Positions 11,787 to 27,862 of a stretch of DNA of 32,000 nt are shown here, piece by piece; position 1 is the first letter of the stretch; the number at the start of each line of letters is the position of its first letter. A model generated the notes under the pieces. It was not told the DNA's origin and did not search any database. It saw nothing but the letters and a program-made list of their open reading frames with translations. A program made the translations under genes and the position numbers. The stretch is from Pyrodictium abyssi (GTDB lineage Archaea; Thermoproteota; Thermoprotei_A; Sulfolobales; Pyrodictiaceae), in assembly GCF_036323395.1 (NCBI RefSeq), contig NZ_AP028907.1, positions 450,001-482,000 on the forward strand, given 5' to 3'.

Positions 11787-11811
11787 CCCCTGGCCCCGCC
11801 CTTCCCGTCTT

Positions 11812-12270: not shown

Positions 12271-13521
12271 TTACCCTGTAGCCCTGGCTAGCTTCTCTAG
12301 GGCCTCTGCTAGCCGGTCTATGTCCTCGGGCCCGTTGTAGATGTAGAAGCTAGCCCTCACGGTGCCCCTCTCGAGGCCTAGGCTGCGGTGCAGTGGCTCA
12401 GCGCAGTGGAAGCCAGCGCGCACAGCCACGCCCTCCATGCCCAGGGCCAGGGCTACGGCGTGGGGCGTATGTCCCTCCATGTTGAAGGCTACTATGCCCA
12501 GCCTCTCCGCCGTCTCGGTGCTCACGGGCTGGAAGCCCGGCACCTCCCCTAGCCTCCGGAGCGCGTACCCTAGGAGCGTCTTCTCGTGAGCCTCCACGCG
12601 CTCCATGCCTATCTCAGCTAGGTACTCTACCGCGGCTGCTAGGCCGACGGCCCCGGCTATATGGGGTGTACCGGGCTCGAACCTCCACGGCGACTCGGCG
12701 AGCTCGACGCGTAGCTCGCCCCCTTCGAGCCGCACGCTCTTGACTATGCCGCCGCCCTGGAACGGAGGCTCAAGCTCCTCTAGGCGGTCACCCCTTACCC
12801 AGAGCACTCCTATGCCGGTGGGCCCCAGCATCTTGTGGCCGCTGAAGAACAGCATGTCGGCCCCGAGGCTGTAGACGTCTAGCGGCATGTGGGGCGCGCT
12901 CTGCGCGGCGTCGACCACCACTAGGGCGCCGTGGCGGCGCGCCTCCCGGGCTATCTCCCGGACAGGGTTAACGTAGCCTAGCACGTTGCTAGCATGCGTG
13001 ACTGCCACCACGGCTGTCTCGTCGTCGACCATGCTGAGTAATACGTCAAGGTCTAGCCTCCCGTCCCGGGGGCGCACAGGGGCTAGCTCTAGCCGGGCCC
13101 CCGCGAGCCGGGCCACGGTCCTCCAGGGCAGCAGGTTACTGTGGTGCTCCATGACCGTCGCTATTATCTTGCTGCCTCTCCTTACCACGCCGCTCAGTAG
13201 CAGCATGTACGCGGCCATGTTGGCCGAGTCGCTGGCGCTCCGCGTGAACACTACCTCGCCGGGGCCACGGGCGCCTATGAAGCCCGCCACCTTCTCGTGG
13301 GCCTCCTCGTAGAGCCGAGTAGCCTCCACGGCCAGCTCGTAGAGCCCGCGGGCCACGTTAGCGTTACTACGCCGGTAGAACGCCTCCACAGCCTCTATGA
13401 CACGGCGGGGCTTCTGCGTAGTGGCGGCGTTGTCGAGGTAGACTAGGCCCGGCCTCTCCCGGAATATGGGGAAGTCGCTGCGGATACTCTCGTAGTCCAG
13501 TAGGAAGCCTACACCCGGCAC
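12271..13521 (-). CDS. sufS: Class V aminotransferase, cysteine desulfurase (SufS/CsdA-like)
   Basis: Motifs: NANVARG, HASNVLG, PLP-lysine motif FSGHKMLGPTGIGVLW, catalytic-Cys motif RAGFHCAEPL. Confidence 0.85.
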   Translation of the reverse strand: MPGVGFLLDYESIRSDFPIFRERPGLVYLDNAATTQKPRRVIEAVEAFYRRSNANVARGLYELAVEATRLYEEAHEKVAGFIGARGPGEVVFTRSASDSANMAAYMLLLSGVVRRGSKIIATVMEHHSNLLPWRTVARLAGARLELAPVRPRDGRLDLDVLLSMVDDETAVVAVTHASNVLGYVNPVREIAREARRHGALVVVDAAQSAPHMPLDVYSLGADMLFFSGHKMLGPTGIGVLWVRGDRLEELEPPFQGGGIVKSVRLEGGELRVELAESPWRFEPGTPHIAGAVGLAAAVEYLAEIGMERVEAHEKTLLGYALRRLGEVPGFQPVSTETAERLGIVAFNMEGHTPHAVALALGMEGVAVRAGFHCAEPLHRSLGLERGTVRASFYIYNGPEDIDRLAEALEKLARATG

Positions 13522-13568
13522 GGCGCGCGCACCCTAGGCGTGGTAGAGAAACGTCCCGGGGAGGGGGG

Positions 13569-13682
13569 TCACCCGCTGCTCTGGCTCCCGAAGTGCTCGT
13601 TGAGCTGCTCCACGTATTTGAAGCCGTTGTCGGGGAAGACGAGGACGTAGCCGCCCTTCTCCCGACCCCGCTCCCTATTCAC
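13569..13682 (-). pseudogene. Stranded 3' relic (37 codons plus stop) of an O-phosphoserine-sulfhydrylase-like gene
   Basis: The minus-strand translation VNRERGREKGGYVLVFPDNGFKYVEQLNEHFGSQSSG* matches the C-terminus of the intact gene at 26149..27246 (LEDGDYVLVFPDNGFKYVEQLNEHLGGHDTVGG*). The open frame is cut off by an in-frame TAA at 13683-13685, just inside the 3' end of the neighbouring wHTH gene, whose own stop codon (13679-13681) overlaps the relic. Confidence 0.75.
13593..13650. repeat. 58-bp perfect direct repeat, copy 1 (partner 26179-26236)
   Basis: gtgctcgttgagctgctccacgtatttgaagccgttgtcggggaagacgaggacgtag is identical at both positions in the same orientation. The flanks are recognisably homologous but diverged. 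Confidence 0.95.
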
Positions 13683-14095
13683 TTAAGCGCCTTCTCGCGC
13701 AGCCTGGTTACGAGCTTCTCGCCCTTCTCGCTGAACATGACTACGCCGTTCTCCACGCGCACAAGACCTCTCCTCTCCAGCTCCCGCAGCGCCTGGAGCA
13801 CCTTTTCCCTGCTGGCCCTCGTGTACACCTCCAGCTCCTCGAAGGGTAGCGCCTTCTTGCTGCCGAGCACCTCTAGAAGCCTCGCCTCGACAACCCTGCT
13901 GGCACCCCCTATCGGGGCACCGCTGTGGAGCGGCTCCTCGACCCACCCGGAGGCCGATCCCCTGCCCGGCGTCGAAACAGACTCGTCTTCCCGGCGCCGC
14001 CCGCTCTGGCTGGAGAGGAGCACGGCAAGCACAGTCAAGGCTGCTAGTGCGGCGAGGAGCGTGTAGAGCGCCGCTAGCGCGTCCATGGCCGTCAC
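13679..14095 (-). CDS. Membrane-anchored winged-helix (MarR/TrmB-like) protein
   Basis: N-terminal TM segment ALAALYTLLAALAALTVLAVLL, then a linker, then wHTH ARLLEVLGSKKALPFEELEVYTRASREKVLQALRELERRGLV. Its start overlaps the upstream stop (GTGA at 14092-14095), or an ATG at 14086 is used. Confidence 0.65.
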   Translation of the reverse strand: MTAMDALAALYTLLAALAALTVLAVLLSSQSGRRREDESVSTPGRGSASGWVEEPLHSGAPIGGASRVVEARLLEVLGSKKALPFEELEVYTRASREKVLQALRELERRGLVRVENGVVMFSEKGEKLVTRLREKALK

Positions 14096-16422
14096 CGTTT
14101 CCTAACAGCCCTTATGCTCGCCGCCAGCACGGCCAGCGAGACAGCGCCCGCAGTCCCCGCCACTATTGTTTGGCTTATCGGCATTTTACTGGCGCCCTCC
14201 TTCACCAGCAGCTGCAACGGCTCGGACTCGAGCTGCATCGAGGCTGCAACGGCTTTCACGCGGTACCTGCCAGGCTTGCCCGGCGCGGAGAAGACTAGCG
14301 AGGCTCTACCCTCCGCGTCTGTAAGCCCGGAGGCCACGGTGGCCCAGGAGTTGTTGCCCTCTGGGCTCAGCAAGAGGGTTACGGCTACGGGCTGCCTAGG
14401 GGGAGGCTCTATGGCTACTGCAGCGGTGACGCTGGCGCCTGTCGGCACTTCAGTGTTGCTCAGCGACAGTGTGAGCCTATGCTCACGTGCTTGGACGCTG
14501 AGTGTAGCGTTCACTCCTAGCTCCCTGAAGCCCTTAAGGCGCACGGATACCACGTAGTCTCCTGGTCTCTGCGGAGACCTTATCCTAACCCTTGCGGAGC
14601 CGTTTACTATGCTGACCTCCTCTGTCTCTAGGACCTCTCCTTTGGGCGTCAATACTTCCACAACGGCTCTCGCGTCCAGCGGAGGCGTGGTCGCTAGGAC
14701 GTACTCAACCAGCTCTCCGGGCCCAGCCGTGGCTCTTGAGGGCTCTATCCCGAGTACGGGGTTTGCGACGTGCACGGCCGCCTGGGATACAAGCGAGCGG
14801 TCCATGCACGTGACGTTGACCCAGACGTGGTATGCCCCGGGGGCCTCGGGGGCTATGATGCTCAGCCTAGCTATGCCGTTTAGCGTCGCTGCTACGAGCG
14901 AGGTATCCGTCCACTCGGGCCTCGCGGACACCCTGCACCCGTCGAGGCCAGGCTTAACAGCCACTTCCAGCTTCACCGGGCTACCGGGCGCAGCCGGACT
15001 GGGCTCTGCCTTCACGCTCAGCCTCGGCTCCGGCAGCACGGCTATGCTGATTGTGCTGCTTGCGAGCTTGTAGCCGCCGAGGCGTATGACGGCGCGTAGC
15101 AGCGAGGTGCCCCGAGGCAGCGCGCTCGATGGTACGCGGACGACGGCGCTGCCCCCGCACACGGTGGCCTCGGCTACGGTTCTCCAGGTGAGTGTTACCG
15201 GGTCAAACACCTCAACGTCTGCGGGGAGACATACGCCCAGGGAGGGCTCGACCCGTATTCTCACCGGGACCTCGCTCCCGGCGAACACAGCGCTTGGGGC
15301 TGCAGCGGAGACGCTGGCTACGCGCAGCAGCCGGGCAACAGGCTGCACGTGTAGTACCACCTCGTTGCTGGGGAAGCGCCTTTCGCTGCCCAGGGCTCTT
15401 AGAGCCACGACCGCTCTCACTCTATAGCTGGCCTCCTCCCCAGTCATGCCTAGGCGCATGCACCCGGTTACACTCCTCATCTCGGGGTCGTAGCTCGTGA
15501 CATAGAAGGGTGTCCACCCGGGGACAGTGCCGCCGAGGTACTCCATAACTATCTCTGCGCTCACGCCCCTAGGGAGCCCTTGGAGCCCCGGGTGGATCTC
15601 GAAGCACACCCTATCGCCCTCAAAGGCCTCGGTGCCGTTAACTGCTAAGAGGCGGGGACGAGGAGGCTCCACGGTAACCAGGAAGAGGCGTTTCTCACTC
15701 ACAGTCCTCGTCCCCACGCCGTAGGCCTCGGCCACTATCCTCAGCACGTGCACCCCCGGGCTTTCGGGCGCTCGTACATCTATACTCACGTTCTCCGTGG
15801 AGCCCGGCGGGAGGCTGGCCCCGAGCAGTTCCGTGTAGACTACATCGCCGTCGAGGTACACCCGGATCCTCGGCTGTACCGCAGCCACCTCGCCTATATT
15901 GGATACGGATACCCTTACCTCGACGGGCTCGTTGCTGACCGCGAGGAGAGACTGCCCGCTGTCCACAGACGCCGTGATCACTAGTGAGGGGGTGAGGGGA
16001 CCTATAGCGAGAGGAACCTTTACCTCCTTGACGGCCGTCTCCGAGCCGCGGTACACCCTAGCTCTGACAGTGAGGCTGCTGCCTAGCAGCGCTGCTGGTA
16101 TCACAGTTGATGCTTCGCTGCTGGTATCGCCGCGTAGGAAGCCGAGGTGCAGTGACCCCAGCGTGGTGTTGCCGTCGAGCAGCTCAACGCTCATGAAGAT
16201 CGGCGCGTTGGACGTATTGTAGATGAGCGACGCCTTTATCTTAACACCGAGCCCTTGTGGCAACACCTCGGTCTCGATGCTCACGCCGACGACGTATATG
16301 TCGCCGCCTATTCTGAAGTCGAGAGCATAGGAGAGTGGGGAGCTCTCACCAGTAGCCTTGGGGACCAGGAGCATGACGAAGACTGTGGCTGCTAGTGCTG
16401 CTAGAAGCCTAGCTTCCCTCAT
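14092..16422 (-). CDS. Large cell-surface protein with repeated CARDB/Ig-like beta domains and a C-terminal TM anchor
   Basis: 776 aa. Signal peptide MREARLLAALAATVFVMLLVPKATG. CARDB-like segment VEVRVSVSNIGEVAAVQPRIRVYLDGDVVYTELLGASLPPGSTENVSIDV. Several further beta-rich repeats follow. The C-terminal IVAGTAGAVSLAVLAASI is followed by RAVRKR. Confidence 0.75.
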   Translation of the reverse strand: MREARLLAALAATVFVMLLVPKATGESSPLSYALDFRIGGDIYVVGVSIETEVLPQGLGVKIKASLIYNTSNAPIFMSVELLDGNTTLGSLHLGFLRGDTSSEASTVIPAALLGSSLTVRARVYRGSETAVKEVKVPLAIGPLTPSLVITASVDSGQSLLAVSNEPVEVRVSVSNIGEVAAVQPRIRVYLDGDVVYTELLGASLPPGSTENVSIDVRAPESPGVHVLRIVAEAYGVGTRTVSEKRLFLVTVEPPRPRLLAVNGTEAFEGDRVCFEIHPGLQGLPRGVSAEIVMEYLGGTVPGWTPFYVTSYDPEMRSVTGCMRLGMTGEEASYRVRAVVALRALGSERRFPSNEVVLHVQPVARLLRVASVSAAAPSAVFAGSEVPVRIRVEPSLGVCLPADVEVFDPVTLTWRTVAEATVCGGSAVVRVPSSALPRGTSLLRAVIRLGGYKLASSTISIAVLPEPRLSVKAEPSPAAPGSPVKLEVAVKPGLDGCRVSARPEWTDTSLVAATLNGIARLSIIAPEAPGAYHVWVNVTCMDRSLVSQAAVHVANPVLGIEPSRATAGPGELVEYVLATTPPLDARAVVEVLTPKGEVLETEEVSIVNGSARVRIRSPQRPGDYVVSVRLKGFRELGVNATLSVQAREHRLTLSLSNTEVPTGASVTAAVAIEPPPRQPVAVTLLLSPEGNNSWATVASGLTDAEGRASLVFSAPGKPGRYRVKAVAASMQLESEPLQLLVKEGASKMPISQTIVAGTAGAVSLAVLAASIRAVRKR

Positions 16423-16625
16423 AGCTGGCCACGCCCTGGGTCTATGGTTGGGCGTGTGTTGCAGTTAGGTATTGCGAATCGTAGCCATGGCGGCGTTGGA
16501 TACGGGTTATAGTGGTGTTGGGTAGCCGCAGAAGGTGGCGGTAAACCCGCTATAGGAGAAGTGCGCAGCCACGGCTGCCGGGCAGCTACAGCTAGACGGT
16601 ATAGTGGAATCCGCGGTCCTATAGG

Positions 16626-18275
16626 CTAGGGGGCGCCGGTCAGTGGAGCTGTGGGCAGCATCATAGGGGCTATCACTAGCCGCGATATAATCTCCATGGC
16701 CTTTACGCCCGCTACGGTCACCACCGAGAGCACTGCCATGTGGAAGAGCGATGACTCCAGGATGCTCCCCCTGACATACGCAATTATCACGGAGTTTACG
16801 AGGGCCAGCATGGCCAGGAAAGCGGAGACCAGCCATGTTATAGTGCTTAGGTCTGGCAGGGTTATGGTAAACGGGAGGTAGCCCACAGCGCTGCTCTGGG
16901 AGAGGGAGCCCAAGGCCTCATAGTAGTGCCCGAACAACGCCAATATGTTTATTATGGCTGATGTTATCGCAGCTACAAGCGCCTGCATAAGGTACACCAC
17001 GGCCTCGAAGGTGCGGGCTACCCGCGACCTATCAGCCCGTAGATCGCTAAGACGGATAAACAGGTCGCTGAGGATGAGCCCCGTCTCCGCAGGGTCGCCG
17101 CCGGCTTCAACAGCGTCTACGAATACATTGTTGCCTCTCACTACATCACTGTTGCTCGTCTCGAGGCTAAGGTACCGGAAGGCTGTGCGCGGCTCCACGC
17201 CATTGGTCACCCTGGCGTAGAGCCTTCTAGCGTATACTGTCAGCGGGCCGTACTCCGCCGAGAGTACAGAGGAGAGCGCGCCCGCGTAGCTCGGGATTAC
17301 CGAGTACGTGAGGCCGAGGCTCCGGACGAACACCTGGTAGAAAGACCCCAGCCTAGCTATATAGCCTTCTACGCGTATAGCGTAGAAGCCCGGGATGAGC
17401 GCAGGGAGCGCTAGGCCTAGAATCGTGTAGCTCGGGTCCCCGGTAGCAAGGTACACCGCGGCCCCCCCGAGAGCTGAGAGCACGAGCCCGCCCCTTGTCA
17501 GCATCCTGAGCCTCGCCAGCGAGCGGTTCATAGAGGCGGCGCCGCGATAGACTACGGGGTCTCTAGGCGCAATATACCGTGCAGCGACGGCGAACACCGT
17601 TATCACGGCAAGGAGCGCGGTCATGGAGGCGGCCATGCTCCAGGTACTGCCCCCCATGAACACTGCCAGTACGGTAAACGTGAGGATTACGAACATCGAT
17701 GCGCTCATAAGGGTGGCGTAGAGCCCTAGGAATATCCTAAGCAGCTCTATAGACCTCATATAGCTGCTAGTGAACTGCCGCACAGAGGTGTCGAGCTCCA
17801 CACGGAGAAACTTGACCACGTCATCACCGGTTCTTAGGACCTCGCTTAGCCTGGTGAGGAAGTCGCGGAGATACCGGTTCGGAGCCTGTTTAGCGACGAG
17901 CCGTGTCGCCCGGACAAACCCGTAGCCCCACTCCACGGCCAGCACTGCTATGCGGCTCAGTGCCCGCCCATAGGCGCCGTAGTCCCCTACCAGGGGCCTT
18001 AGCTCGAAGAGGCGCCTCCTCTCGGGCCTACCCGTGGCCACGGCATACATGTGAGCCATCACGAATAGTAGGTCTATGTCGAGTCCTCCAGCGGCCCTCC
18101 TAGCAGCGGGCACTAGGACGCGCAGGAGAACCACCGGTAGGGGCAGTACTAGCCCTAGGTAGCCGAAGGGACCCGGCACCAGGATAGCCATCACGGCGGC
18201 TAGTACGAGGCCCGCGAGCACCACCGGGTCGAGTAGGATCCTTGAGGCGGGCTCGCCGCGCACGGCTGCTAGCAC
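16626..18275 (-). CDS. arlJ: Archaellum membrane platform protein ArlJ (FlaJ)
   Basis: 549-aa polytopic membrane protein. It is the last gene of the operon, 9 nt after arlI. Size and position match FlaJ. Confidence 0.85.
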   Translation of the reverse strand: MLAAVRGEPASRILLDPVVLAGLVLAAVMAILVPGPFGYLGLVLPLPVVLLRVLVPAARRAAGGLDIDLLFVMAHMYAVATGRPERRRLFELRPLVGDYGAYGRALSRIAVLAVEWGYGFVRATRLVAKQAPNRYLRDFLTRLSEVLRTGDDVVKFLRVELDTSVRQFTSSYMRSIELLRIFLGLYATLMSASMFVILTFTVLAVFMGGSTWSMAASMTALLAVITVFAVAARYIAPRDPVVYRGAASMNRSLARLRMLTRGGLVLSALGGAAVYLATGDPSYTILGLALPALIPGFYAIRVEGYIARLGSFYQVFVRSLGLTYSVIPSYAGALSSVLSAEYGPLTVYARRLYARVTNGVEPRTAFRYLSLETSNSDVVRGNNVFVDAVEAGGDPAETGLILSDLFIRLSDLRADRSRVARTFEAVVYLMQALVAAITSAIINILALFGHYYEALGSLSQSSAVGYLPFTITLPDLSTITWLVSAFLAMLALVNSVIIAYVRGSILESSLFHMAVLSVVTVAGVKAMEIISRLVIAPMMLPTAPLTGAP

Positions 18276-18284
18276 CCGGCAGCG

Positions 18285-20051
18285 CTACTTTATTAGCTCG
18301 CCGCGCTGTATCCTGCTAAGGGCTTCCTCGAGGGCCTCTACCACCGCGTAGGGGGCCTCCTCCTTGCTGACGCGGCGCGCGTGCTCTACTGTGAGCGCGT
18401 GTATCCTAGCCAGCGTGCGGAACACCTGGTAGTAGTTGAACACCTTTCTCTCTATCATGGCCCTTATTATCCGCGCTCTCAGCTCCAGCTCGTCGTATAT
18501 TATGAACATGTTCCGCCTAGAGAGGCCGCGTTTCACGCCTATCTTCTCCTCGAGGAGATAGCTGGTGCCCCTTCCGCGGAACGTGAAGCGGTCGCTAACA
18601 GGGTCCCAGGTGAAGGTGGGGACGTAGAGCGTCGAGCCGCTTTTCGGGTCGTACCCCATGATCTCGTTGACGCTGAGCACTCTGCGTACGAGCACGCCTT
18701 CGCGGTAGACGGCGCTCTGTATGACCACGAAGTTCAGATTGTCTAGCTGCGATTTGGGGACGTTTATCGGGGGAGATGTGAGCCTCTGTACGAGCCTCTC
18801 GACGCTCGCAGCGTGGAAGGTGGCTAGGACTGGGTGGCCTGTCTGCATCGCCTGGAACGCTATAAGACCCTCCGCCCCGCGTATCTCGCCGACGATTATG
18901 TAGTTAGGCCTCTGGCGGAGCGCGGCCTTGAGCAGGTCGAACATGGTTACGCTGGTCTCTGGGCTCCCCGTGTCGCGCGTGAGCTCCCGCACCCAGTTGG
19001 GGTGCGGCACGTTCAGCTCAGCAGTGTCCTCTATAGTCACTATCTTAGCGGTAGGGTTTATGAACGCCACGATAGCGTTGAGTGTGGTGGTCTTGCCGGA
19101 GGCTGTCTCGCCGGATACGAAGCCGCTGTTCCCCTCGAGTAGGAGCATCCACAGGTAGGCCGCTATGCGCTCGTCGAAGGTGTTCCAGCTAACGAGCTGC
19201 GTCACGCTCAGCGGTATCTTGGCGACACGGCGTATGGTGAAGTTGCTGCCCTGGAGGCTCACGTCTGTGCCGAAGACTATGTTTATCCTGCTGCCGTCGG
19301 GCAGCGTGGCGTCCACTATGGGCCTCGCGTGGCTCACGGGCTTCCCTATCCTCTCGCTAAGCTCTATGATGAACTTGTCGAGCTCCTCGTGGGTCTCGAA
19401 GCGGAGGCTTGTCTCGAGGGGGCCGAACACCTTATGGACTATGTATATGTTCCCGACGCCGGGGCAGGAGATGTCCTCTATGTAGGGATCCTTCAGCACG
19501 GGCTCCAGTATGCCTAACCCAGCCTTGTCCCTCAGCAGGTAGTACACCAGGTTCCTATAGTGCGCCTGGTAGACGGGCACCCTCCTAAGGCTGTGCACCC
19601 GGGGCAGCAGGGCACGGTAGTCCACGGGGCGGGGTACCCTCTCGGCTATCTCGCCCAGCTTCCGGAGCAGTATCCGCCTCCGCTCCTCCAGATCCCTCGC
19701 CACGTCGTTCTCTGTTATGACCGAGGCGAGCTTCTCCTCTACTAGGGCGAACAGCTCCCGGGGAGGCCTCTCCGGCTCCACAGCCACGTACTTCCTGTAC
19801 CCCGACTCACCGCCCCCCGGGGGCGTGTAGATGTGGATGAATATGCCAGCCTCCTCGTCCACCACGTACATGACGTTCAGCCTGGCGGCTTTCCGGAGGC
19901 TCCTCGGCAGCTCCCTCCCGTAGTACGCGGGAACGCCTACCCTCGCGGCGACAGCCCTAAGATAGCGGGCTAGGTGGGGGAACCTCCGCGCCAGCCTCCT
20001 CAGCTCCCCCGCCTCAGCGGCCTGCAGTGCGGCAGCCGCCATAGACGCCAC
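18285..20051 (-). CDS. arlI: Archaellum motor ATPase ArlI (FlaI; VirB11/PilT-type secretion ATPase)
   Basis: Walker A GETASGKTTTLNA. Walker B region PNYIIVGEIRGAEG. Also ATFHA. Length is 588 aa. Confidence 0.92.
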   Translation of the reverse strand: MASMAAAALQAAEAGELRRLARRFPHLARYLRAVAARVGVPAYYGRELPRSLRKAARLNVMYVVDEEAGIFIHIYTPPGGGESGYRKYVAVEPERPPRELFALVEEKLASVITENDVARDLEERRRILLRKLGEIAERVPRPVDYRALLPRVHSLRRVPVYQAHYRNLVYYLLRDKAGLGILEPVLKDPYIEDISCPGVGNIYIVHKVFGPLETSLRFETHEELDKFIIELSERIGKPVSHARPIVDATLPDGSRINIVFGTDVSLQGSNFTIRRVAKIPLSVTQLVSWNTFDERIAAYLWMLLLEGNSGFVSGETASGKTTTLNAIVAFINPTAKIVTIEDTAELNVPHPNWVRELTRDTGSPETSVTMFDLLKAALRQRPNYIIVGEIRGAEGLIAFQAMQTGHPVLATFHAASVERLVQRLTSPPINVPKSQLDNLNFVVIQSAVYREGVLVRRVLSVNEIMGYDPKSGSTLYVPTFTWDPVSDRFTFRGRGTSYLLEEKIGVKRGLSRRNMFIIYDELELRARIIRAMIERKVFNYYQVFRTLARIHALTVEHARRVSKEEAPYAVVEALEEALSRIQRGELIK

Positions 20052-20055
20052 CCCG

Positions 20056-20766
20056 CTAGGACTGAGCGAGCACTATAGGCACAATCTTTATCCCGAAGGC
20101 TGGGTCCACGTCGAATGCTACGCTCCCCTCAACCACGTCGGGGGCGCCCCGCGCCTTCACCACCCGGAGCACCCGCACCTGCTTGCCGCCAACGCTGGCG
20201 AGGCCCAGGCTGTAGTAGACATCGGCGGCCGCACGCAGCTCCAGCATAGCAGGCTCTCCGAGGACACCGGGATGCACCGTAGCGATGAACGAGACCCCGC
20301 GGGCCACGAGCCTGCGCGCCACGTAGACGAGCCTGCCCACAGCGCTGTCCCCAGCAGCGAGGGGGGTGAGAGAGTCCACGGCAATGGCGTCGAAGCCGCT
20401 GGCCCTCTCCGCCCAGGAGAGCAGCCGCTGCAGCAACACTCCGGGGGGCTCGTGCCTCACAGTGTAGGTGCTGTACACCCTAAGCGAGCCCTTCACGAAG
20501 TAGCGGACTAGGTCTATCCGCACACCCCGTGCCTGGAGGAGCAGGTGCCGCGCCGTGGACTCTGTAGTGAACAGCGCCACGCGGAGCCCCGAGGAGAGCA
20601 TGCCATAGGCTATCTGCAGCACGAGGGTCGTCTTAGCGGTGCCGTTACCCCCCTCCACAACTATGAAGGCTGGGTGCGGGACGCCGCCGCCTATACGGCT
20701 GTCCAGCTCCTCATTCCCAGTGCTGACTACCCGTATCACCCAGCTAGCCGGGGACAGGGAGCGCAT
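20056..20766 (-). CDS. arlH: Archaellum KaiC/RecA-like ATP-binding protein ArlH (FlaH)
   Basis: 236 aa, single RecA-like domain. Walker A VVEGGNGTAKTT and Walker B-like AIAVDSLTPL. It lies directly upstream of arlI (4-nt gap). Confidence 0.88.
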   Translation of the reverse strand: MRSLSPASWVIRVVSTGNEELDSRIGGGVPHPAFIVVEGGNGTAKTTLVLQIAYGMLSSGLRVALFTTESTARHLLLQARGVRIDLVRYFVKGSLRVYSTYTVRHEPPGVLLQRLLSWAERASGFDAIAVDSLTPLAAGDSAVGRLVYVARRLVARGVSFIATVHPGVLGEPAMLELRAAADVYYSLGLASVGGKQVRVLRVVKARGAPDVVEGSVAFDVDPAFGIKIVPIVLAQS

Positions 20767-21253
20767 AGCTGCAGCACACCCCCTCGCCGCTGCACACGAC
20801 GAGCCTAACCACCGAGCCGGGGTCGGGGGTGAGCGTCAAGTTGATCGCGAGCACCGCGGACTCGCCCGGCATTAGGGTGGCCGTGGAGCCCGGCCTAGCG
20901 CTGTAGGCCCTCCCACCCACGACCCTGTAGAGCACCCTCAGCCCCGCACCGTAGGGGAGCACATCGTGCCTGGTCACCCTGCCGCTGGTGTACACCGCCA
21001 CGGCTACCGCCCCCTCCCCTAGGCTGACCTCTACAGAGCCCTGGTTCTCCACGGTAACGTTGAGAGCCCCGCCCTCGATGGACGCGCCTACTACTGCTAG
21101 CTTCGCGCGGGCCCGGTACTCCAGGTACCCTGCGAGATCCCGGGCCTCCTCGAGGAACACAGTAGCATAGCCCGTCCAGGCCTCCACGAGCACCAGGGCG
21201 GCTGATACGAGGACTAGTACGCCGATAGCAGCGCCTATAGCGGCTGCCGACAA
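20744..21253 (-). CDS. arlF: Archaellum FlaF/FlaG-family protein (assigned ArlF by gene order)
   Basis: 169 aa. An N-terminal hydrophobic helix (IGAAIGVLVLVSAALVLV) is followed by a beta-rich domain. The start is TTG. The position between arlG and arlH matches the Sulfolobus order B-X-G-F-H-I-J. Confidence 0.6.
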   Translation of the reverse strand: MSAAAIGAAIGVLVLVSAALVLVEAWTGYATVFLEEARDLAGYLEYRARAKLAVVGASIEGGALNVTVENQGSVEVSLGEGAVAVAVYTSGRVTRHDVLPYGAGLRVLYRVVGGRAYSARPGSTATLMPGESAVLAINLTLTPDPGSVVRLVVCSGEGVCCSYALPVPG

Positions 21254-21260
21254 GCTCCTC

Positions 21261-21749
21261 TCACCCCGTGTAGCCCGCTTCGAGCCGGGACCCGCTAGGC
21301 AGCACCATCACTACCCGGTAGGGCGGCTCCACGCCTAGCGGCGGGCAGGCCTTCACCTCAAGGGTCTCCCGCTGCTCCCAGACCCCGTTAGGATTCTCGA
21401 TCTCCCGGTAGCTCCAGCAGCCCAGGCCCTGAGAGCAGTAGTCCATGTACTCTAGGAGGAAGGTCTCCGAGCCGTTGCCGAGGATGAGGGTAGCGTCCTC
21501 CACGCCCGCTATAGGCGCCTCGCCCACGTTCTTCAGGAACAGGTAGTGGCAGCCATCGCTCTCGTTGACGAAACCGTACACGAACACGGCCCGCTCCGAG
21601 AGCCCCCGCGCGGCGGCAGCGCTAGCCGAGGCTATGCGCCCGCCCAGGTAGGAGGCGTTGTACAGTATAGCGCTCGCCACTATCATAGTGGCTGTCACAG
21701 CGGCTATCACTAGTATGGCCTCCGCTATCGGTGTCGAGACTCCTCTCAA
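21261..21749 (-). CDS. arlG: Archaellum FlaF/FlaG-family protein (assigned ArlG by gene order)
   Basis: 162 aa. It has an archaellin-like N-terminus GVSTPIAEAILVIAAVTATMIVASA followed by a beta-rich domain. Its TTG start overlaps the arlX-like stop (TTGA). Confidence 0.6.
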   Translation of the reverse strand: MRGVSTPIAEAILVIAAVTATMIVASAILYNASYLGGRIASASAAAARGLSERAVFVYGFVNESDGCHYLFLKNVGEAPIAGVEDATLILGNGSETFLLEYMDYCSQGLGCWSYREIENPNGVWEQRETLEVKACPPLGVEPPYRVVMVLPSGSRLEAGYTG

Positions 21750-22405
21750 CCCCGCCTCTCCCCCAGAGCAGCCAGAGCGAGGGCGACACGCGGCTCCAAC
21801 CCCCTCTCCCTAGCCCGCTCGACAGCACGGGCTATGGCCGTGATACGCCTGGCCTCCTCCTCGGAGAGCACCCCGGCCCTAACGTACTCCCTCACTATCT
21901 CCTCAACGACGCCGGCCCCGCTCCTCTCCACGATCTCGCCGAGCGCCCTGATTGCGGCCTGAAGCCCCCCGTTGCCAGCAGTACCCGCCGGCCCGGCTAG
22001 GGGGTTGGAGGCCTCCGAGAGGGCCTCCCGCAGCTCGAGCACCACAGCCTCCACGCTGGAGACAAGCCCCTTGACCTCGTCGTGCAGCTTGTCCAGCTTC
22101 CCCTCGACGCCGGAGAGCCTCTCGAGGACGCTCCTAGCGCTCTCCTGGACCGCGCTCCTCACAGCGTCCACCACGTTCTCCGCCACCTTCTCCGCGACTT
22201 CGTCCACAGAGGGCACAGCCGCCGTCACCCCCACGGCCTCCTCCTGGGCCTCCACCTCCGGGCCAGCCTCCTCCCCCGCGGGCTCGCTAGCCTCCTCCGC
22301 CCCGGGCTCCGGGGACGGCCCGGGGCCCGCCTCCCCGCCGGCTCTACGCACAAGCGGCCACACGAGCAGCCTACAGATAGGGCAGCTACACCTCCATGCA
22401 GCCAT
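21746..22405 (-). CDS. arlX: ArlX-like (FlaX) coiled-coil protein lacking the expected N-terminal TM helix
   Basis: It occupies the crenarchaeal arlX slot between arlB and arlG. It has an acidic Pro/Glu linker, then heptad-like VDEVAEKVAENVVDAVRSAVQESARSVLERLSGVEGKLDKLHDEVKGLVSSVEAVVLELREAL. The N-terminus MAAWRCSCPICRLL carries a C.C..C motif and no TM helix. Confidence 0.55.
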   Translation of the reverse strand: MAAWRCSCPICRLLVWPLVRRAGGEAGPGPSPEPGAEEASEPAGEEAGPEVEAQEEAVGVTAAVPSVDEVAEKVAENVVDAVRSAVQESARSVLERLSGVEGKLDKLHDEVKGLVSSVEAVVLELREALSEASNPLAGPAGTAGNGGLQAAIRALGEIVERSGAGVVEEIVREYVRAGVLSEEEARRITAIARAVERARERGLEPRVALALAALGERRG

Positions 22406-22449
22406 GCAGCAGCGCCACCCCCTCGCCCCGGATGCACCCCTCCCCGGGG

Positions 22450-22743
22450 CTAGGCCCCCCGGAGGCTAGCAGCGCCCACGACGAGCCAGTGCAGGCCTAG
22501 CGCCAGCGCTAGCAAGCCCCCGCCCAGAGCCGCGTAGCCGCCCCCCAGCTCCCCCTCGAGCACCGCGTAGAGCACAAGCCCTCCTATCAGCGCCAGCACA
22601 GCGCCTATAGCCGTGAACACCGCGACAACCGCTCTCCCGCCCAAGGCTACGACAGCCTCCGCAAGGCAGCTGGAAAATGGTGCGCGGCCCGCTCGGCCGC
22701 GCCACGCGGAAAAACAGTGGGGCCGGGCTCCGGGGCTAGGCAC
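22450..22743 (-). CDS. Small two-TM membrane protein between arlB and the arlX-like gene
   Basis: It contains the hydrophobic segments AVVAVFTAIGAVLALIGGLVLYAVL and YAALGGGLLALALGLHWLVVGAA. The GTG at 22743 lies 10 nt after the arlB stop; an internal TTG start would give about 64 aa. The N-terminal third is Arg/Gly/Pro-rich and may not be translated. Confidence 0.45.
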   Translation of the reverse strand: MPSPGARPHCFSAWRGRAGRAPFSSCLAEAVVALGGRAVVAVFTAIGAVLALIGGLVLYAVLEGELGGGYAALGGGLLALALGLHWLVVGAASLRGA

Positions 22744-22753
22744 GGCCCACGGT

Positions 22754-23386
22754 CTAGCCGCCTACGATGAGGTCCACGAAGTCGCTGGTGAGTACCGGCG
22801 GTATCTCGTACCTCACGACCAGCGGCGCGCCTACCGGCGGCTTGATCTCTATCTGCACCTTGCTGTAAGGCGGGAGACCGTTAGTATCAGTAACGTTCAC
22901 CGCAAGCAGCATTACCTCACCAGGCTCTAGTAGTGTATTGTTGTTACCCTGGGCAGCGATCCATATGGCTTTGTAGGCTTGGACATTGTTTACAGCAGTT
23001 AGGTTTGTGGTATTGGTTATGTATATGTTTCCGTTTGCATCACGCTGTACTATATTGGCATTTGCGATGCTTGTGCCGTTTGGCTTTTGCACCAGCAGTG
23101 ATACTACTGTCTTATCTAGGTCTATTGGGTTAGTGCCTGCGGTGAGCTTTACCGGGAGGAATATCATGGTGGCCTGTCTCTCGCCGCTTATGGTCTGGAC
23201 CTCAGCTATGGCGTTACCTGCTACGTCTAGCGCTCTGGTGGCGGAGTCGTAGGCCTTGGCCATTACTTCTTTGCTCTTCTGGCTGGCGAACATGCCCATG
23301 TTTATCGCCACGAATGCTAGCGCGCTCGCCACTAGTACGAAGGCTATTAGGACGATCGCGGCCTCTATACCCACTATGGCTCTCAC
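22754..23386 (-). CDS. arlB: Archaellin ArlB (FlaB)
   Basis: N-terminus MRA/IVGIEAAIVLIAFVLVASALAFVAINMGMF is the class III signal and hydrophobic archaellin N-domain, with Gly at +3 relative to the predicted cleavage site. It is the first gene of the operon. The start is GTG, with a GGGGTGAG SD-like element 8 nt upstream. An in-frame stop at 23411-23413 prevents any longer leader. Confidence 0.88.
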   Translation of the reverse strand: MRAIVGIEAAIVLIAFVLVASALAFVAINMGMFASQKSKEVMAKAYDSATRALDVAGNAIAEVQTISGERQATMIFLPVKLTAGTNPIDLDKTVVSLLVQKPNGTSIANANIVQRDANGNIYITNTTNLTAVNNVQAYKAIWIAAQGNNNTLLEPGEVMLLAVNVTDTNGLPPYSKVQIEIKPPVGAPLVVRYEIPPVLTSDFVDLIVGG

Positions 23387-23606
23387 GCAGGGCTCACCCC
23401 TTGGGGGATCTCACCTTGTGTCTGGTGCTCGGGCCGTGTGGAGAGGCGGCCCGGCTGTTGGGGAAAAGCGACGTGAAGGCCCGGCCGGTTATGAGGCGCG
23501 TTGCGTATAGCCCCAGCGGAGCAGGCTAGGGGGCGGCTAGGTGCGCGGCCCATAGCCCCCGGGGCAAGGGTTAAGAGGGCGGTTCTGCACGATACTACAC
23601 GCGGGA

Positions 23607-23631
23607 CCAGGGGTAGCCCCGGCTGCCGCCC
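23607..23631. repeat. 25-bp perfect inverted repeat, left copy (partner 25899-25923)
   Basis: ccaggggtagccccggctgccgccc is the exact reverse complement of 25899-25923. It lies in the arlB / KaiC-A divergent intergenic region. Confidence 0.95.
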
Positions 23632-23720
23632 GAGGAGCCGGGCCCGGCAGCATTAATCAGAAACCGTTTCTCCCAACCCGTACCCCGGGCCCCGGCCCGC
23701 CCGCCCGCGGAGGACAACCC

Positions 23721-23927
23721 ATGAAGAAGCGGAGCCTCCTCGCCCGCGCTCTAGGCGTCGTAGCGCTCTTCGCCTCCATAGGGGTCTGGGCGGCTGGCGC
23801 GGCACCAGCCTCTATAGCGTTGCTAGCCGCCGCAGCGCTAGCCGTGCAAGACGGCTTCGAGGAGCCCGCGGCCGCTCTCCCAGGCCAGTGCCTCTCCTGG
23901 GAGCCCTGGAGGTGCGCACTGCTATGA
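23721..23927 (+). CDS. Small (68 aa) membrane or signal-peptide protein translationally coupled to KaiC-A
   Basis: The ATG is preceded by GGAGG (7-nt spacer). The sequence is MKKRSLLARALGVVALFASIGVWAAGAAPASIALLAAAALAV. Its TGA overlaps the KaiC-A ATG (ATGA at 23924-23927). Confidence 0.5.
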   Translation: MKKRSLLARALGVVALFASIGVWAAGAAPASIALLAAAALAVQDGFEEPAAALPGQCLSWEPWRCALL

Positions 23928-25399
23928 ACCTGGTGGAGTGGGGGATCGAGGGGCTGGATAAGCTGCTCGGCGGTGTTCCTCGTGGGGCTGTTGTGCTTCT
24001 CGCTGGGAACCCTGGTACTGGTAAGTCTACTTTCGCGGCGAAGTTCCTCTACGAGGGTGCGCGGCGCCTCGGCGAGCCCGGGGTGTACCTCAACTTCGTC
24101 GAGCCCCGCCAGGACTTCCTCAGCCACATGGCCATGCTCGGCATGGACTTCGAAAGCCTCGAAGAGAAGGGACTATTCCACTACGTAGAAGCACTAACAA
24201 TCGTAGACGAGGAGGCTCTTGTGGCTCAGCTGGAGGAGCTCGAGAGCCTCGTGCGCGAGACGGGCGCGAAGAGGCTGGTAGTAGACAGTATAACTGTCAT
24301 AATGCAGCTCGTGAATGGCGTTTCCAAGGCCAGGGAGCTGCTGCAGAACTTCTTCGTTAACGGGCTCAAGCCCCTCGGCGTCACCTCGATACTCATAGCG
24401 GAGCACCCCTACGGGGCCCGCATGGTAGGATACGGCATCGAGGAGTTCATAGTAGACGCCGTCGTTCTGCTCCGCTTCGAGAGCCACGCGGGGAAGATGC
24501 GGAGGGTGCTCGAGCTGCGTAAGGCACGCTGGGCCCCGATATACCAGGTGGAGCTGCCCTTCGAGATACTCCCCGGCAGGGTGGTAGACATTGCTGTGCC
24601 GGAGGAGCCGAAGTCCGTCCCAGCGCCGGTGGGGGAGAGGGTGTACAGCTTCGCAGACATAGCCCGTGCAGCCCGGCGGCCGGGGCGCCAGCCTCTCGTG
24701 CGCACGCTCCTCCCCTCGGGCTCGCCGCTGCCCGTAGAGGTAGCGAGCTCCGTCTACTTTTCGCAGGGCTCGCAGGTGCTCGTACATGTTAGCGAGAGCA
24801 TACACACGAGGTTCCTAGTAGCGTTGCTGGCAGCCACACTCCACGTGTACACCGGGGAGAAGGTGGCGGTATTCAGCTTCAAGTCGGCGCCGTCGCTGCT
24901 GGAGCGGATGACGCGCTGCGTATACTCGATCATGTCGGGTGCAGCGGGCCCCGGAGACGGCATAGTATTCGATGCGGTAAACCCCTCGGCCTACCTGCCG
25001 GAGCACATAGTCTCCCAGCTCCGCGGCCTCGTGGAGAGCGAGAAGCCCTCCCTCCTCTTCCTGGAGGGCATAGAGGGCCTAGAGGAGCTCTACGGTGCAG
25101 CCCTCCACAGCATGATGGTGAACGTGCCCTACATGCTGCGCCGGCTCGGCGTAACCACGCTGTACTTCTACGCCAGCGACGCGGCGCCGCAGGAGAAGCG
25201 CATGCTACGCCTCCTACGCATCGCAGCCGACATGAAGATAGACGTCTACCCACAGGCGCTCGAGACGAAGCTGGACCAGAGAGGCAGGAAGAGGCTCGTG
25301 CAAAAATACCGCATGTGGGTCAAGACGCCGACAGTACGCCTGGAGATAGTTAAGGAGTTCGACATGCAGCCCCTCATGGAGAGGCGCTGCGTCTACTAG
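23924..25399 (+). CDS. Two-domain KaiC-like ATPase, paralogue A (second domain lacks a P-loop)
   Basis: Domain 1 has Walker A GNPGTGKST and Walker B-like RLVVDSITV. Domain 2 is homologous in pattern but has GSQVLVHVSESIHTRF where a P-loop is expected. The preferred start is the ATG at 23924 (GGAGGTG SD upstream, ATGA coupling); the track ORF begins at 23888. Confidence 0.85.
   Translation: MNLVEWGIEGLDKLLGGVPRGAVVLLAGNPGTGKSTFAAKFLYEGARRLGEPGVYLNFVEPRQDFLSHMAMLGMDFESLEEKGLFHYVEALTIVDEEALVAQLEELESLVRETGAKRLVVDSITVIMQLVNGVSKARELLQNFFVNGLKPLGVTSILIAEHPYGARMVGYGIEEFIVDAVVLLRFESHAGKMRRVLELRKARWAPIYQVELPFEILPGRVVDIAVPEEPKSVPAPVGERVYSFADIARAARRPGRQPLVRTLLPSGSPLPVEVASSVYFSQGSQVLVHVSESIHTRFLVALLAATLHVYTGEKVAVFSFKSAPSLLERMTRCVYSIMSGAAGPGDGIVFDAVNPSAYLPEHIVSQLRGLVESEKPSLLFLEGIEGLEELYGAALHSMMVNVPYMLRRLGVTTLYFYASDAAPQEKRMLRLLRIAADMKIDVYPQALETKLDQRGRKRLVQKYRMWVKTPTVRLEIVKEFDMQPLMERRCVY
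23968..24216. repeat. 249-bp perfect inverted repeat, copy in KaiC-A (partner 29748-29996 in KaiC-B)
   Basis: Checked in 10-nt blocks: 23968-24216 equals the reverse complement of 29748-29996 with no mismatch. It covers about codons 16-98, including Walker A. The sequence diverges on both sides. Confidence 0.95.
24335..24459. repeat. 125-bp inverted repeat with 1 mismatch, copy in KaiC-A (partner 29505-29629)
   Basis: Block-by-block comparison found a single difference at 24422 (a vs g). It encodes ELLQNFFVNGLKPLGVTSILIAEHPYGAR.VGYGIEEFIVDA. It is separated from the 249-bp block by 118 diverged nt. Confidence 0.9.
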
Positions 25400-25695
25400 C
25401 GCCTACGCCGCCTGGCCGGCAGCGCGTAGAGCGGAACCCCGTCCACGATCCTCTTCTCCACAAGCCCCTGCCGTACAAGCTTCTTCAGCTTCCTCCAGGC
25501 AACGCTGCGGTGGACGCCTAGCTGCCTCGCTATCTCGCTCGCCCGGAGGGGCCTCCCGGACTCTGCGAGCACTCGTAGAATAGCCTCGTCCCTCTCATCA
25601 AGCCCGTTCTCCCCGACCACCGGCGCCTCGCCGCCCCGCCAGAGTTCCGAGACGATATCGAGTAGCCGGGATACACGGGAACGGAGAGACAGCAA
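25396..25695 (-). CDS. Small winged-helix transcriptional regulator (MarR/ArsR-like)
   Basis: 99 aa. DEAILRVLAESGRPLRASEIARQLGVHRSVAWRKLKKLVRQGLV. It is convergent with KaiC-A and overlaps its end by 4 nt. The start is TTG. Confidence 0.65.
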   Translation of the reverse strand: MLSLRSRVSRLLDIVSELWRGGEAPVVGENGLDERDEAILRVLAESGRPLRASEIARQLGVHRSVAWRKLKKLVRQGLVEKRIVDGVPLYALPARRRRR

Positions 25696-25898
25696 CGCCG
25701 AGACACCGTTCCATACCAGAAGCCAGCACGCCCCTTAGCTACCCGCGCAGAGGCGTATTACGACTCAAGCATAGGAGGATATATAGAGGGCGCGGAGCCT
25801 ACTGGCACGTATTAAAACGGCACTGTGGCAGGCCCACCATGCTAACCTCCGCTAACTATAAACGAGCGACAACAATCCCTACTACACCTGCGGGGCGA

Positions 25899-25923
25899 GG
25901 GCGGCAGCCGGGGCTACCCCTGG
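25899..25923. repeat. 25-bp perfect inverted repeat, right copy (partner 23607-23631)
   Basis: gggcggcagccggggctacccctgg read directly. The core is shared with 71-91. Confidence 0.95.
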
Positions 25924-26148
25924 ACCCTCGGCGGCGGGGACGGTGACCCCGCGCGTGGGGGAGGCCCCGCCGCCCACGCCTACCCTCTATGCTTCTTGCC
26001 TCCTCTCTCCCAGCACCCGGTCCGCTGCACCCCGGGTTCCCCGCGGGAGCCGCTTATAGACCAGTCTGCACCGGTAAATATGCCGCCGGGGGGGGGGGTA
26101 CTTTATGTATTTCGTATTCCGCTCTCCCCGCAGTACGAGAGAGCCGGC

Positions 26149-27246
26149 CTAGCCCCCGACTGTGTCATGGCCTCCAAGGTGCTCGTTGAGCTGCTCCACG
26201 TATTTGAAGCCGTTGTCGGGGAAGACGAGGACGTAGTCGCCGTCCTCCAGCTCCCCGCTGTCCAGCAGCCTCGTGAAGGCTGCGGCGACGGCTCCGCTGC
26301 TCATGCCGGGGAGTATGCCGTCCCGGCGGGCCACTGTCAGCAGCGCCTCTATCGCCTCGCGCCGGGTCACCTCTACCACGCGGTCGGGCTTGACCCAGTG
26401 TATCCACTTCATCCCGGTCTCTATCCTGCGTATGCCGGGTATGACCTCGCCCCGGGCGGGCTGCACTGTGTAGATCTTCACGCCGCCCACCCTGTTGCGG
26501 AAGTAGAATGTTATCGCGGCCATGTGGCCTGAGGTGCCGATGCCCCCGATTATGCCCCGAGGCTTTATACCGGCGTGGCGTAGCTGTAGCTCGAGCTCCT
26601 TGGCCATGTAGCGGAGGTGTACCAGGAAGTTGGCGTCGTTGCTGAACTGGTCTATGTGGAGTGCCCCGTCCCGGGCAGCATCCCTCTTCACGTCCTCTAG
26701 CAGCTCGACGGTGAGCTGCTTCCCGGCCCGGACAACCTCGGCACCCAGGGCCCGTAGCAGGGTATCGCTCGCCCGCTGTATGACCCGGGGGATGTAGAGC
26801 CTAGCCCGGAACCCGTATATAGCGGCCATAGCGGCGAGCGCCATGCCCGTATTGGTCGAGGTCGCCTCGTAGACTAGGCTACCCTGCCAGCCGTTCTCCA
26901 GCGCCCGGCGGACCATGTACCAGCCTACGCGGTCCTTGACGCTCATACTGTAGGGGTTGTACCACTCGAGCTTAGCCCAGGCCCTCACCCCGCCGCTGAA
27001 GAGGCTACGCAGCATGACAAGGGGCGTAGGCCAGCCGCGGTAGAGAAGCTCCAGCGTGTCCCGGAAAACCCTCATCGGCGAGGGGTCTATGTCCTCGTAG
27101 AACCCCATATCCTCGAGGCTAGCCTCCACGGGCACGGGGTTCTCCTGCGACACGGGTACACGGCGGACGCCGAGTAGCCGGAGAGCCCAGACTAGGCGGC
27201 GCGCCTCCTCGCCCACTACTCTAACGGATCCGTGTACTGGTATCAC
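26149..27246 (-). CDS. PLP-dependent cysteine synthase of the archaeal O-phosphoserine sulfhydrylase type
   Basis: Motifs: LEWYNPYSMSVKDR (PLP lysine), STNTG, GIGTSGHM, IPGIRRIETGM, GDYVLVFPDNGFKY. This motif set and the long N-terminal extension resemble the characterised Aeropyrum pernix O-phosphoserine sulfhydrylase, as I recall its sequence. Confidence 0.8.
   Translation of the reverse strand: MIPVHGSVRVVGEEARRLVWALRLLGVRRVPVSQENPVPVEASLEDMGFYEDIDPSPMRVFRDTLELLYRGWPTPLVMLRSLFSGGVRAWAKLEWYNPYSMSVKDRVGWYMVRRALENGWQGSLVYEATSTNTGMALAAMAAIYGFRARLYIPRVIQRASDTLLRALGAEVVRAGKQLTVELLEDVKRDAARDGALHIDQFSNDANFLVHLRYMAKELELQLRHAGIKPRGIIGGIGTSGHMAAITFYFRNRVGGVKIYTVQPARGEVIPGIRRIETGMKWIHWVKPDRVVEVTRREAIEALLTVARRDGILPGMSSGAVAAAFTRLLDSGELEDGDYVLVFPDNGFKYVEQLNEHLGGHDTVGG
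26179..26236. repeat. 58-bp perfect direct repeat, copy 2 (partner 13593-13650)
   Basis: Lies inside the 3' end of the intact cysteine synthase gene and is identical to 13593-13650. Confidence 0.95.
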
Positions 27247-27330
27247 TCCTCGATCCCCCGCTGCGGAGGAGAGCAGCTAGCAGGTCTAGCAGCTCCTCGA
27301 GCCCTGGAGCCTCTCCGGCATCAAGCTCCT

Positions 27331-27836: not shown

Positions 27837-27862
27837 GCCTGCTAGCGCCTTGCACCCCAGCC

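Follow-up and report, generated by a model that had tools for sequence, protein, structure and literature searches.

A 12.6-kb archaellum block bounded by 58-nt direct repeats and its probable insertion into the 3' end of a cysteine synthase-like gene of Pyrodictium abyssi

We analysed a 32,000-nt stretch of the Pyrodictium abyssi AV2 genome (the window; contig NZ_AP028907.1, positions 450,001 to 482,000), in which a 12.6-kb block carrying a complete archaellum operon stands between a cysteine synthase-like gene, here called CysS, and sufS, which encodes a SufS-family cysteine desulfurase. The block is bounded by a perfect 58-nt direct repeat of the CysS 3' end and, as judged from the alignments, is an insertion relative to every relative examined. 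The anatomy of its junctions very probably reflects a Campbell-type insertion, and we assign a probability of about 0.5 to the reading that the crossover was made by the site-specific integrase of an integrative element, an enzyme since lost or acting in trans. An earlier sequence-only reading of the window had proposed an insertion into the 3' end of the gene that carried its own replacement terminus, in the manner of attachment (att) site duplications. The present analysis supports this interpretation, with corrections, as a cleanly delimited insertion of a complete archaellum module.

Self-comparison of the window bore out the reported repeat, since positions 13593-13650 and 26179-26236 are identical over 58/58 nt in direct orientation. 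The repeat period is 12,586 nt, and the interval between the two cores (13651-26178) measures 12,528 nt. With up to 3 mismatches permitted, the window still has no third match to the core, and a match of this type appeared in 0/100 dinucleotide-preserving shuffles. Formal alignment of the two regions showed that homology fades outside the core, as had been noted: a gapped local alignment reaches 13582-13672 versus 26168-26259 (~91 nt, one 1-nt gap), the ungapped register gives 89% identity over 88 nt, and past ~91 nt the in-register identity is at background (0-4 matches per 10 nt). Both copies are read on the minus strand. Copy 2 (26179..26236, attL-like) lies near the C-terminus of the PALP-family gene at 27246..26149 and encodes YVLVFPDNGFKYVEQLNEH; copy 1 (13593..13650, attR-like) encodes the same 19 residues. 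Copy 1 sits within a stranded relic of the CysS C-terminus, 37 codons plus a stop (13569..13680, minus strand), which was confirmed by translation and by protein and DNA alignments at the gene boundary where the sequence-only reading had placed it. Its frame reads VNRERGREKGGYVLVFPDNGFKYVEQLNEHFGSQSSG up to a stop codon at 13569-13571. The relic frame opens directly after the TGA (13679-13681) of a gene for a small winged helix-turn-helix (wHTH) regulator with a transmembrane segment (TM-wHTH), and it stops 47 nt short of the sufS start.

Relatives without the block define the empty site. These are referred to by L-numbers, which denote metagenomic contigs or contigs of metagenome-assembled genomes (MAGs). 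In six contigs from three lineages (L001, L002 and L125-L128), sufS comes immediately after CysS and the block is missing, which is the adjacency that removal of the block had been predicted to restore. CysS is 89% identical to the window gene in L001 (P0001), 80% in L002 and 71% in P0005 (the four contigs L125-L128). In L001, the closest empty site, the CysS-sufS spacer is 57 nt, the gene order equals that of the window on both flanks, and the flank proteins are 82-96% identical. Comparison with blastn gave two collinear alignments, window 6522-13655 to L001 18317-11120 and window 26168-29103 to L001 11193-8282. Both overlap at L001 11120-11193, the segment that is duplicated in the window, so that the breakpoints fall at the core and the interval 13651..26178 is the DNA missing from the empty sites. 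No relative carries a second CysS paralogue at the position of the relic, and in relatives the archaellum module is located elsewhere. The CysS-sufS adjacency is absent from Hyperthermus and Pyrolobus, indicating that it is a feature of the Pyrodictium-side clade.

The two junctions are hybrids. In a four-way DNA alignment, only the CysS copy matches the empty sites upstream of the core, where the gene sequence is orthologous to L001 and L002, and the relic copy shows ~24 nt of weak homology followed by the TM-wHTH gene. Downstream of the core the relation is reversed. Only the relic copy matches the empty sites there, through the tail, the spacer and the start of sufS, which form one 86.7%-identical blastn alignment with L001, and the empty sites contain nothing related to the DNA 3' of the present CysS stop codon. 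The relic tail is FGSQSSG, similar to FESQST and FERQST of the orthologues, which it matches at 13/15 nt over the first five codons; the CysS tail now in use matches 7/15 nt over the same codons. This tail, LGGHDTVGG with its stop codon (26149..26178, minus strand), has the length and stop position of the orthologue tails, yet is identical at only 16-17/30 nt. We identify it, from alignment to those tails, as the replacement terminus now serving CysS. Among all CysS 3' ends at hand, none was closer to it than the rest, and a donor lineage did not emerge. At the other joint, the local and four-way alignments mark 13651..13675 (minus strand), upstream of the relic core, as an insert-borne stretch that is partly CysS-homologous (17/23 nt plus one 1-nt gap) and reaches to within 4-7 nt of the TM-wHTH stop codon. 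A non-coding stretch of 453 nt (25696..26148) separates the replacement tail from the wHTH gene; it is not alignable to the empty sites, is classed as insert-derived, and gave no Pfam match in six frames. Hybrid junctions of this kind are the pattern of one reciprocal crossover between a chromosomal site and circular DNA with a ~112-nt gene-end-like stretch.

We propose the following course of events. The incoming DNA would have been circular, or cut within the segment, and would have carried ~112 nt resembling the CysS 3' end, with a stop codon. This 12.6-kb segment, with the archaellum operon, a CARDB surface protein, the TM-wHTH regulator, a KaiC-type ATPase and an Lrs14-like regulator, would have entered the last ~30 codons of CysS through a single reciprocal, Campbell-type crossover inside the 58-nt stretch that is now duplicated. 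CysS would thereby have retained its own body and come to read into the tail and stop codon supplied by the insert, and its original tail would have been stranded 12.6 kb off, still joined to sufS. The crossover would be the work of a site-specific (tyrosine-type) integrase of an integrative element whose attachment site was the conserved CysS 3' end; the integrase gene would later have been lost, or the enzyme would have acted in trans from elsewhere in the genome. We favour an integrase because the donor gene-end fragment ending at a stop codon resembles an attP, the attachment site on the element, for a 3'-distal protein-gene target, because the repeat length is within the archaeal range, and because the silent sites of the core are conserved in the empty-site lineages. 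Recombination between the two direct repeats could still delete the block precisely, so that CysS-sufS would be restored and motility lost. It would yield non-motile variants with CysS fused to the FGSQSSG tail and possibly a 12.6-kb circle. A speculative extension, which we hold to be improbable, is that the archaellum module is a mobilisable motility cassette without an integrase of its own, moved at the conserved 58-nt CysS site by a recombinase encoded elsewhere. If true, it would explain the synonymous identity of the site across Pyrodictium lineages, and motility could be turned off and on, or handed from cell to cell, in a single 12.6-kb unit.

The gene content listed for the interval by the sequence-only reading was recovered with Pfam. 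The archaellum operon (16626..23386, minus strand) has matches to Arch_flagellin, KaiC-type ATPase, T2SSE and T2SSF and the same order in nine related loci. Reading from its 5' end, it comprises arlB (22754-23386; Arch_flagellin, 1.7e-30), a small membrane open reading frame (22450-22743), arlX (21746-22405; assigned by synteny, without a family match), arlG (21261-21749; a weak Arch_flagellin match, 3e-06), arlF (20744-21253; a weak FlaF_Ig-like match, E=0.05), arlH (20056-20766; KaiC, 1.1e-15), arlI (18285-20051; T2SSE, 1.8e-39) and arlJ (16626-18275; T2SSF, 1.1e-05). Archaellin, ArlH, ArlI and ArlJ are thus all encoded on one strand, as in a crenarchaeal-type operon, and ArlX, ArlG and ArlF have syntenic homologues in relatives at 26-59% identity. 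After arlJ follow, on the same strand, a 776-aa CARDB/PKD surface protein (14092..16422; CARDB, 2e-08), syntenic in L005, L006, L010 and L083-L085, and the TM-wHTH gene (13679..14095), a small regulator that joins an N-terminal membrane helix to a C-terminal winged helix, assigned from its sequence and a weak MarR_2 match. Divergent from arlB on the plus strand is KaiC-A, a KaiC-domain ATPase (23888..25399; KaiC, 1e-57), followed on the minus strand by an Lrs14/Sta1-like winged-helix regulator (25396..25695), which matches many Pfam wHTH families and falls below the cutoffs of NCBIfam Sta1 and Lrs14.

Across the nine loci, which belong to Pyrodictiaceae and relatives, the genes from arlB to arlJ form one contiguous unit at sites other than CysS-sufS, and none of these loci contains a CysS fragment. 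In L083-L085 the unit lies between GatC-side genes and a phosphatase/lactate-utilisation cluster. The CARDB protein and TM-wHTH follow arlJ in the loci that extend far enough (L005, L006, L010, L083 and L084). TM-wHTH is the last gene of this conserved module, at the same position in L005, L010 and L083 and on the opposite strand in L006. The P. abyssi block keeps arlB to TM-wHTH exactly, without two genes that accompany the module in relatives. One encodes a divergent 286-aa wHTH protein with C-terminal membrane helices upstream of arlB (L003-L006, L009 and L083-L085), and the other is a 113-aa gene after TM-wHTH (L005, L009, L010 and L083-L084). KaiC-A stands at the position of the 286-aa regulator. 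That KaiC-A and the Lrs14-like regulator replace the 286-aa and 113-aa genes suggests a different regulatory wiring. We considered whether the 113-aa gene of relatives corresponds to the block's wHTH gene, which would make the circular junction syntenic, and rejected this as no similarity was found. A chimeric query composed of the C-terminal half of KaiC-A, the wHTH protein and two L083 neighbour proteins, used to look for the usual archaellum locus of P. abyssi and the origin of KaiC-A, matched only P. abyssi KaiC-A. ArlJ of the window has a 100% identical match in a P. abyssi protein, and at 60% identity follows the nearest other ArlJ among 5.8 billion proteins; for ArlI, identity to relatives is 83-84%. 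L083 and L002 come from the same sample, with a guanine plus cytosine (GC) content of 50% and 52%. If they represent one organism, the Arl values would be compatible with ordinary divergence of fast-evolving archaellum proteins and would be no proof of foreign origin. Archaellum-type ATPases are also present in bacterial MAGs: contigs labelled Chloroflexi, Dehalococcoidia or Anaerolineales (L027-L030 and L053) encode ArlI relatives of 40-48% identity.

Core identity between the two copies is matched by conservation of the core between species. The core is the best-conserved 58-nt window of CysS against both L001 (58/58 six nt out of register, 57/58 in register) and L002 (56/58, compared with 77% for the whole gene). 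Identical residues share the same codon at 16/17 core positions versus 141/260 elsewhere for L002 (Fisher p=7e-4), and at 18/18 versus 219/285 for L001 (Fisher p=0.01). As the core region was set by the repeat and not by conservation, this synonymous-codon test is independent of its definition. No such excess was seen against Hyperthermus or Pyrolobus. The conservation of silent sites fits a role at the DNA level, such as that of an attachment site.

Gene conversion provides a further route to identity. KaiC-A and KaiC-B, a paralogue outside the block on the opposite strand, share exact tracts of 249 nt (23968-24216 versus 29748-29996) and 87+37 nt (24335-24459 versus 29505-29629), although the proteins are otherwise 48% identical, indicating that conversion between diverged repeats operates here. 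An exact core within much lower flanking identity is a conversion-like pattern, with this precedent 10 kb away, and the His codon (CAC) present in both cores where orthologues carry Tyr (TAC) fits homogenisation. Since the core is also conserved between species, conversion is not required for its perfect identity. Together, these two processes mean that the 58/58 match says nothing on the age of the insertion: we infer that the identical cores reflect strong conservation and/or later gene conversion, with no recent event implied.

Several smaller features lie in or near the repeats. In the CysS copy, an imperfect 17-nt dyad (26217-26233 and 26241-26257) extends across the 5' boundary of the core, with perfect 7-nt arms GAGGACG and CGTCCTC and a 7-nt spacer; the relic copy is without the outer arm. 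The RNA fold around the dyad region has z=-2.5. A 12-nt G run is located at ~26087-26098, in the insert-derived non-coding DNA just 3' of the CysS stop codon. The 249-nt inverted repeat formed by the KaiC tracts could also invert a 5.5-kb segment containing CysS.

A number of observations weigh against an integrative element. In searches with Pfam, NCBIfam and PHROGs, covering the large open reading frames across the 32-kb window and six frames of the two largest gaps in the block, we found no integrase, transposase, Cas1, replication, conjugation or capsid gene, in line with the sequence-only reading, which had seen no integrase or transposase. The window also contains no tRNA and no Rfam family. 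The suggested comparison of composition did not set the block apart and gave no sign of a distant donor: the tetranucleotide correlation is r=0.966 between block and flanks and 0.952 between flank and flank, and GC at third codon positions is equal in block and flanks (Mann-Whitney p=0.90), in a genome of 63.5% GC. A tetranucleotide tile test with p=0.008 was discarded, as the flank tiles feed the flank profile against which they are scored. The block DNA is thus native, from a close relative, or resident long enough to have converged on its host. The cargo itself is a chromosomal-type module in the gene order of relatives, and neither a free nor a second integrated copy of such an element turned up. 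Two degenerate core patterns had no match in viral contigs. Finally, if a sufS promoter or an RNA element extended over the gene end, this would explain the conservation of the core's silent sites equally well. A TATA-like octamer, TTCAAATA on the minus strand, occurs within the core at 13615-13622 and 26201-26208, and in the relic copy the sufS start follows ~95 nt downstream of it. The octamer may belong to a sufS promoter and as such be a further reason for the conservation.

We also searched metagenomes for other occupied sites. A scan with a long core pattern gave no match, and a second scan with a core pattern gave 37 loci. Five loci on hot-spring metagenome contigs have stranded CysS C-terminal fragments (L091 8895-9161, L104 2368-2595, L111 4674-4964, L115 554-694 and L118 4750-5109), of which one adjoins a TnpB-like fragment and one comes after ThiF. 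The fragment of L115 and L124 shares a contig with the full gene, 73 kb upstream of it, and the two are ~75% identical, with mostly silent differences. None of the five fragments has an integrase beside it, a further point against an element, and the CysS gene end could therefore not be shown to be a recurrent integration site. As to the class of the block, it has the direct att-type repeats, the empty site with its breakpoint at the repeat and the hybrid junctions of a genomic island. Inverted repeats at its ends are absent, as are the transposase or Cas1 and the duplication of at most 15 bp expected of a transposon or casposon. Having the structure of an island and no encoded integrase, the block is an example of that kind, fossil or trans-dependent, rather than a demonstrated mobile element.

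Homology of ~58-112 nt would give the same Campbell topology without any integrase, through host homologous recombination with a circularised chromosomal fragment that carried a CysS-3'-like piece. The donor could be a related Pyrodictium cell or the same genome, in which case the event would be an intragenomic relocation of the native archaellum module. The lack of a recombinase or other mobile-element gene in the window, the native composition and the cargo order shared with the chromosomal module of relatives all speak for this route. So does the divergence of ArlI, which is about that of the flank proteins versus L002 (70-86%) and fits vertical descent, and short diverged repeats evidently recombine here, as the KaiC conversion tracts show. 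However, the donor would need a ~112-nt CysS 3' fragment ending at the stop codon beside its archaellum genes, an attP-like feature that 0/9 of the relatives' loci have, and the silent-site conservation of the core in empty-site lineages would be left unexplained. We regard host recombination as the main rival, less probable than an integrase but far from negligible. It is decidedly unlikely that the CysS 3' end was duplicated locally beforehand, as a long target-site or tandem duplication, and then diverged with its middle kept identical by conversion, the incoming DNA having no homologous segment. Gene conversion is active in the window and both tails are partly homologous to orthologue tails, as such a history would have it, but the tail of the functional gene (7/15) is more diverged than that of the unselected relic (13/15), which fits poorly with target duplication and drift. 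In addition, 58-112 nt is far beyond the known target duplications of transposases or casposases, and neither terminal inverted repeats nor a transposase were found.

The remaining alternatives take the block to be ancestral at the site or question the joint itself. Were the block ancestral between CysS and sufS, precise deletion between the repeats would yield the state of L001 and L002, with the CysS body, the core, a relic-type tail and sufS. Against this, all three lineages of growing distance (89%, 80% and 71%) are empty, the module of relatives lies elsewhere together with the 286-aa and 113-aa genes that the P. abyssi block is without, and an earlier insertion would still be needed to create the duplication; we consider this history very unlikely. 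An assembly artefact, in which a separate circular 12.6-kb molecule or a distant block was joined at the 58-nt repeat, draws on the small indels that several window genes show against their orthologues, owing to which the sequence quality is not assured. A long-read or complete-genome assembly (here a 2.22-Mb single contig) would not be misled by a repeat of only 58 nt, both cores have on their inner sides a diverged partial homology that is a biological signature, and the block is without a replication gene, making such an error extremely unlikely.

The target gene is itself altered. CysS encodes a cysteine synthase/CysM-like enzyme dependent on pyridoxal phosphate, with a main frame of 365 codons (26149..27246, minus strand; Pfam PALP, 1.8e-51). 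As an O-phosphoserine sulfhydrylase or CysM-type cysteine synthase it does not reach a curated family score, as NCBIfam cysKM/cysM give 143-151 bits, far under their cutoffs of 344-394. Its orthologues have ~403 aa. The sequence-only reading had taken the gene to be intact, which requires correction: relative to L001 there is a net 2-nt deletion at ~27262-27275, near codon 40, so that the N-terminal ~47 codons (~27247-27385) are read in a different frame and an internal GTG serves as the start of the main one. The ratio of nonsynonymous to synonymous substitution rates against L001 is 0.19, indicating that any inactivation of CysS is recent. CysS has no 100% self-match in the protein database, which suggests that it is annotated as a pseudogene. 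Upstream, a SerK-like ParB_N gene (27331..27836, minus strand) is split by 1-nt and 2-nt deletions relative to L001, whose orthologue scores 2e-19 with NCBIfam SerK, below the cutoff. A third KaiC paralogue at 600-1900, likewise compared with its L001 orthologue, is broken up over three or more frames. The frameshifts in CysS, the SerK-like gene and this KaiC paralogue represent either decay of serine kinase and cysteine synthase or assembly indels. The ancestral downstream neighbour, SufS (12271..13521, minus strand; Aminotran_5, 7e-128), is 93% identical to the L001 protein and scores 463.9 bits with TIGR01979 (4e-139), just under the curated cutoff of 475.1 bits.

Two further regions of the window differ from relatives or are repetitive. 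A 3.4-kb stretch at 3107-6522 is missing in L001, has a lower GC content (0.57) and lacks flanking repeats. Its products are an archaeal ATPase_2 protein, whose C-terminal winged helix is of the MCM type, and a 339-aa protein, which we considered as a candidate SSV-type integrase and rejected, as it proved to be a relative of the cannula proteins CanX and CanA, matched by its C-terminal 140 residues (PDB 9h8b, E=1e-18). A 161-aa gene at 11301-11786 has an internal tandem duplication with a 237-nt period and copies that are 74-84% identical; it is 92% conserved in L001.

The locus shows at nucleotide resolution how a complete archaellum operon reached a new chromosomal site in a hyperthermophilic crenarchaeote. 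Transfer or relocation of motility operons is usually inferred from phylogeny alone, and here the joint itself is preserved. Integration into the 3' ends of protein genes is already known; what is unusual is the archaellum cargo and the preservation of the joint. In Pyrodictiaceae, the conserved CysS 3' end is a candidate attachment site. The insertion cut what was probably a serK-cysS-sufS unit, two genes of which are now frameshifted, and this points to a possible connection between acquisition of the block and a decay of cysteine synthesis in the peptide-fermenting P. abyssi.

Comparable arrangements are known from bacteria and archaea. Phage 21 and e14 in Escherichia coli icd carry a diverged copy of the last ~165 nt of the gene, which stays complete while its old end is stranded. 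Like the P. abyssi block, they entered the 3' end of a metabolic enzyme gene and left the old end as a pseudogene fragment; in contrast to it, these are bacterial prophages with an integrase of their own, and their integration has been shown experimentally. Casposons in the 3' end of aEF-2 likewise use a conserved protein gene and create a direct duplication, but theirs is a 14-15-bp target duplication accompanied by terminal inverted repeats, Cas1 and PolB, none of which occur in the block. The trapped elements of Sulfolobales and Thermococcales illustrate that repeat-bounded blocks can lose their integrase and become fixed. They target tRNA genes and keep plasmid or virus genes or split integrase fragments, none of which were seen in P. 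abyssi. Protein-gene att sites have been reviewed for archaea, where some integrases (pTN3) recombine any identical ~100-bp segments with a homologous-type outcome (PMC8371274). The closest parallel is with archaeal elements integrated in 3'-distal regions of protein genes, whose att repeats measure up to 69 bp and which provide the gene with a new stop codon; thaumarchaeal iMGEs, NitEve-E2 among them, are an example (Krupovic et al. 2019; PMC6563490). These encode an integrase and mobile-element genes, whereas the P. abyssi block, in which none were found, carries an archaellum cargo of native composition. In architecture the two agree: both have flanking direct att-type repeats of comparable length, a protein-gene 3' end as target, a new stop codon from the insert, a displaced original gene end and an empty site in a related genome.

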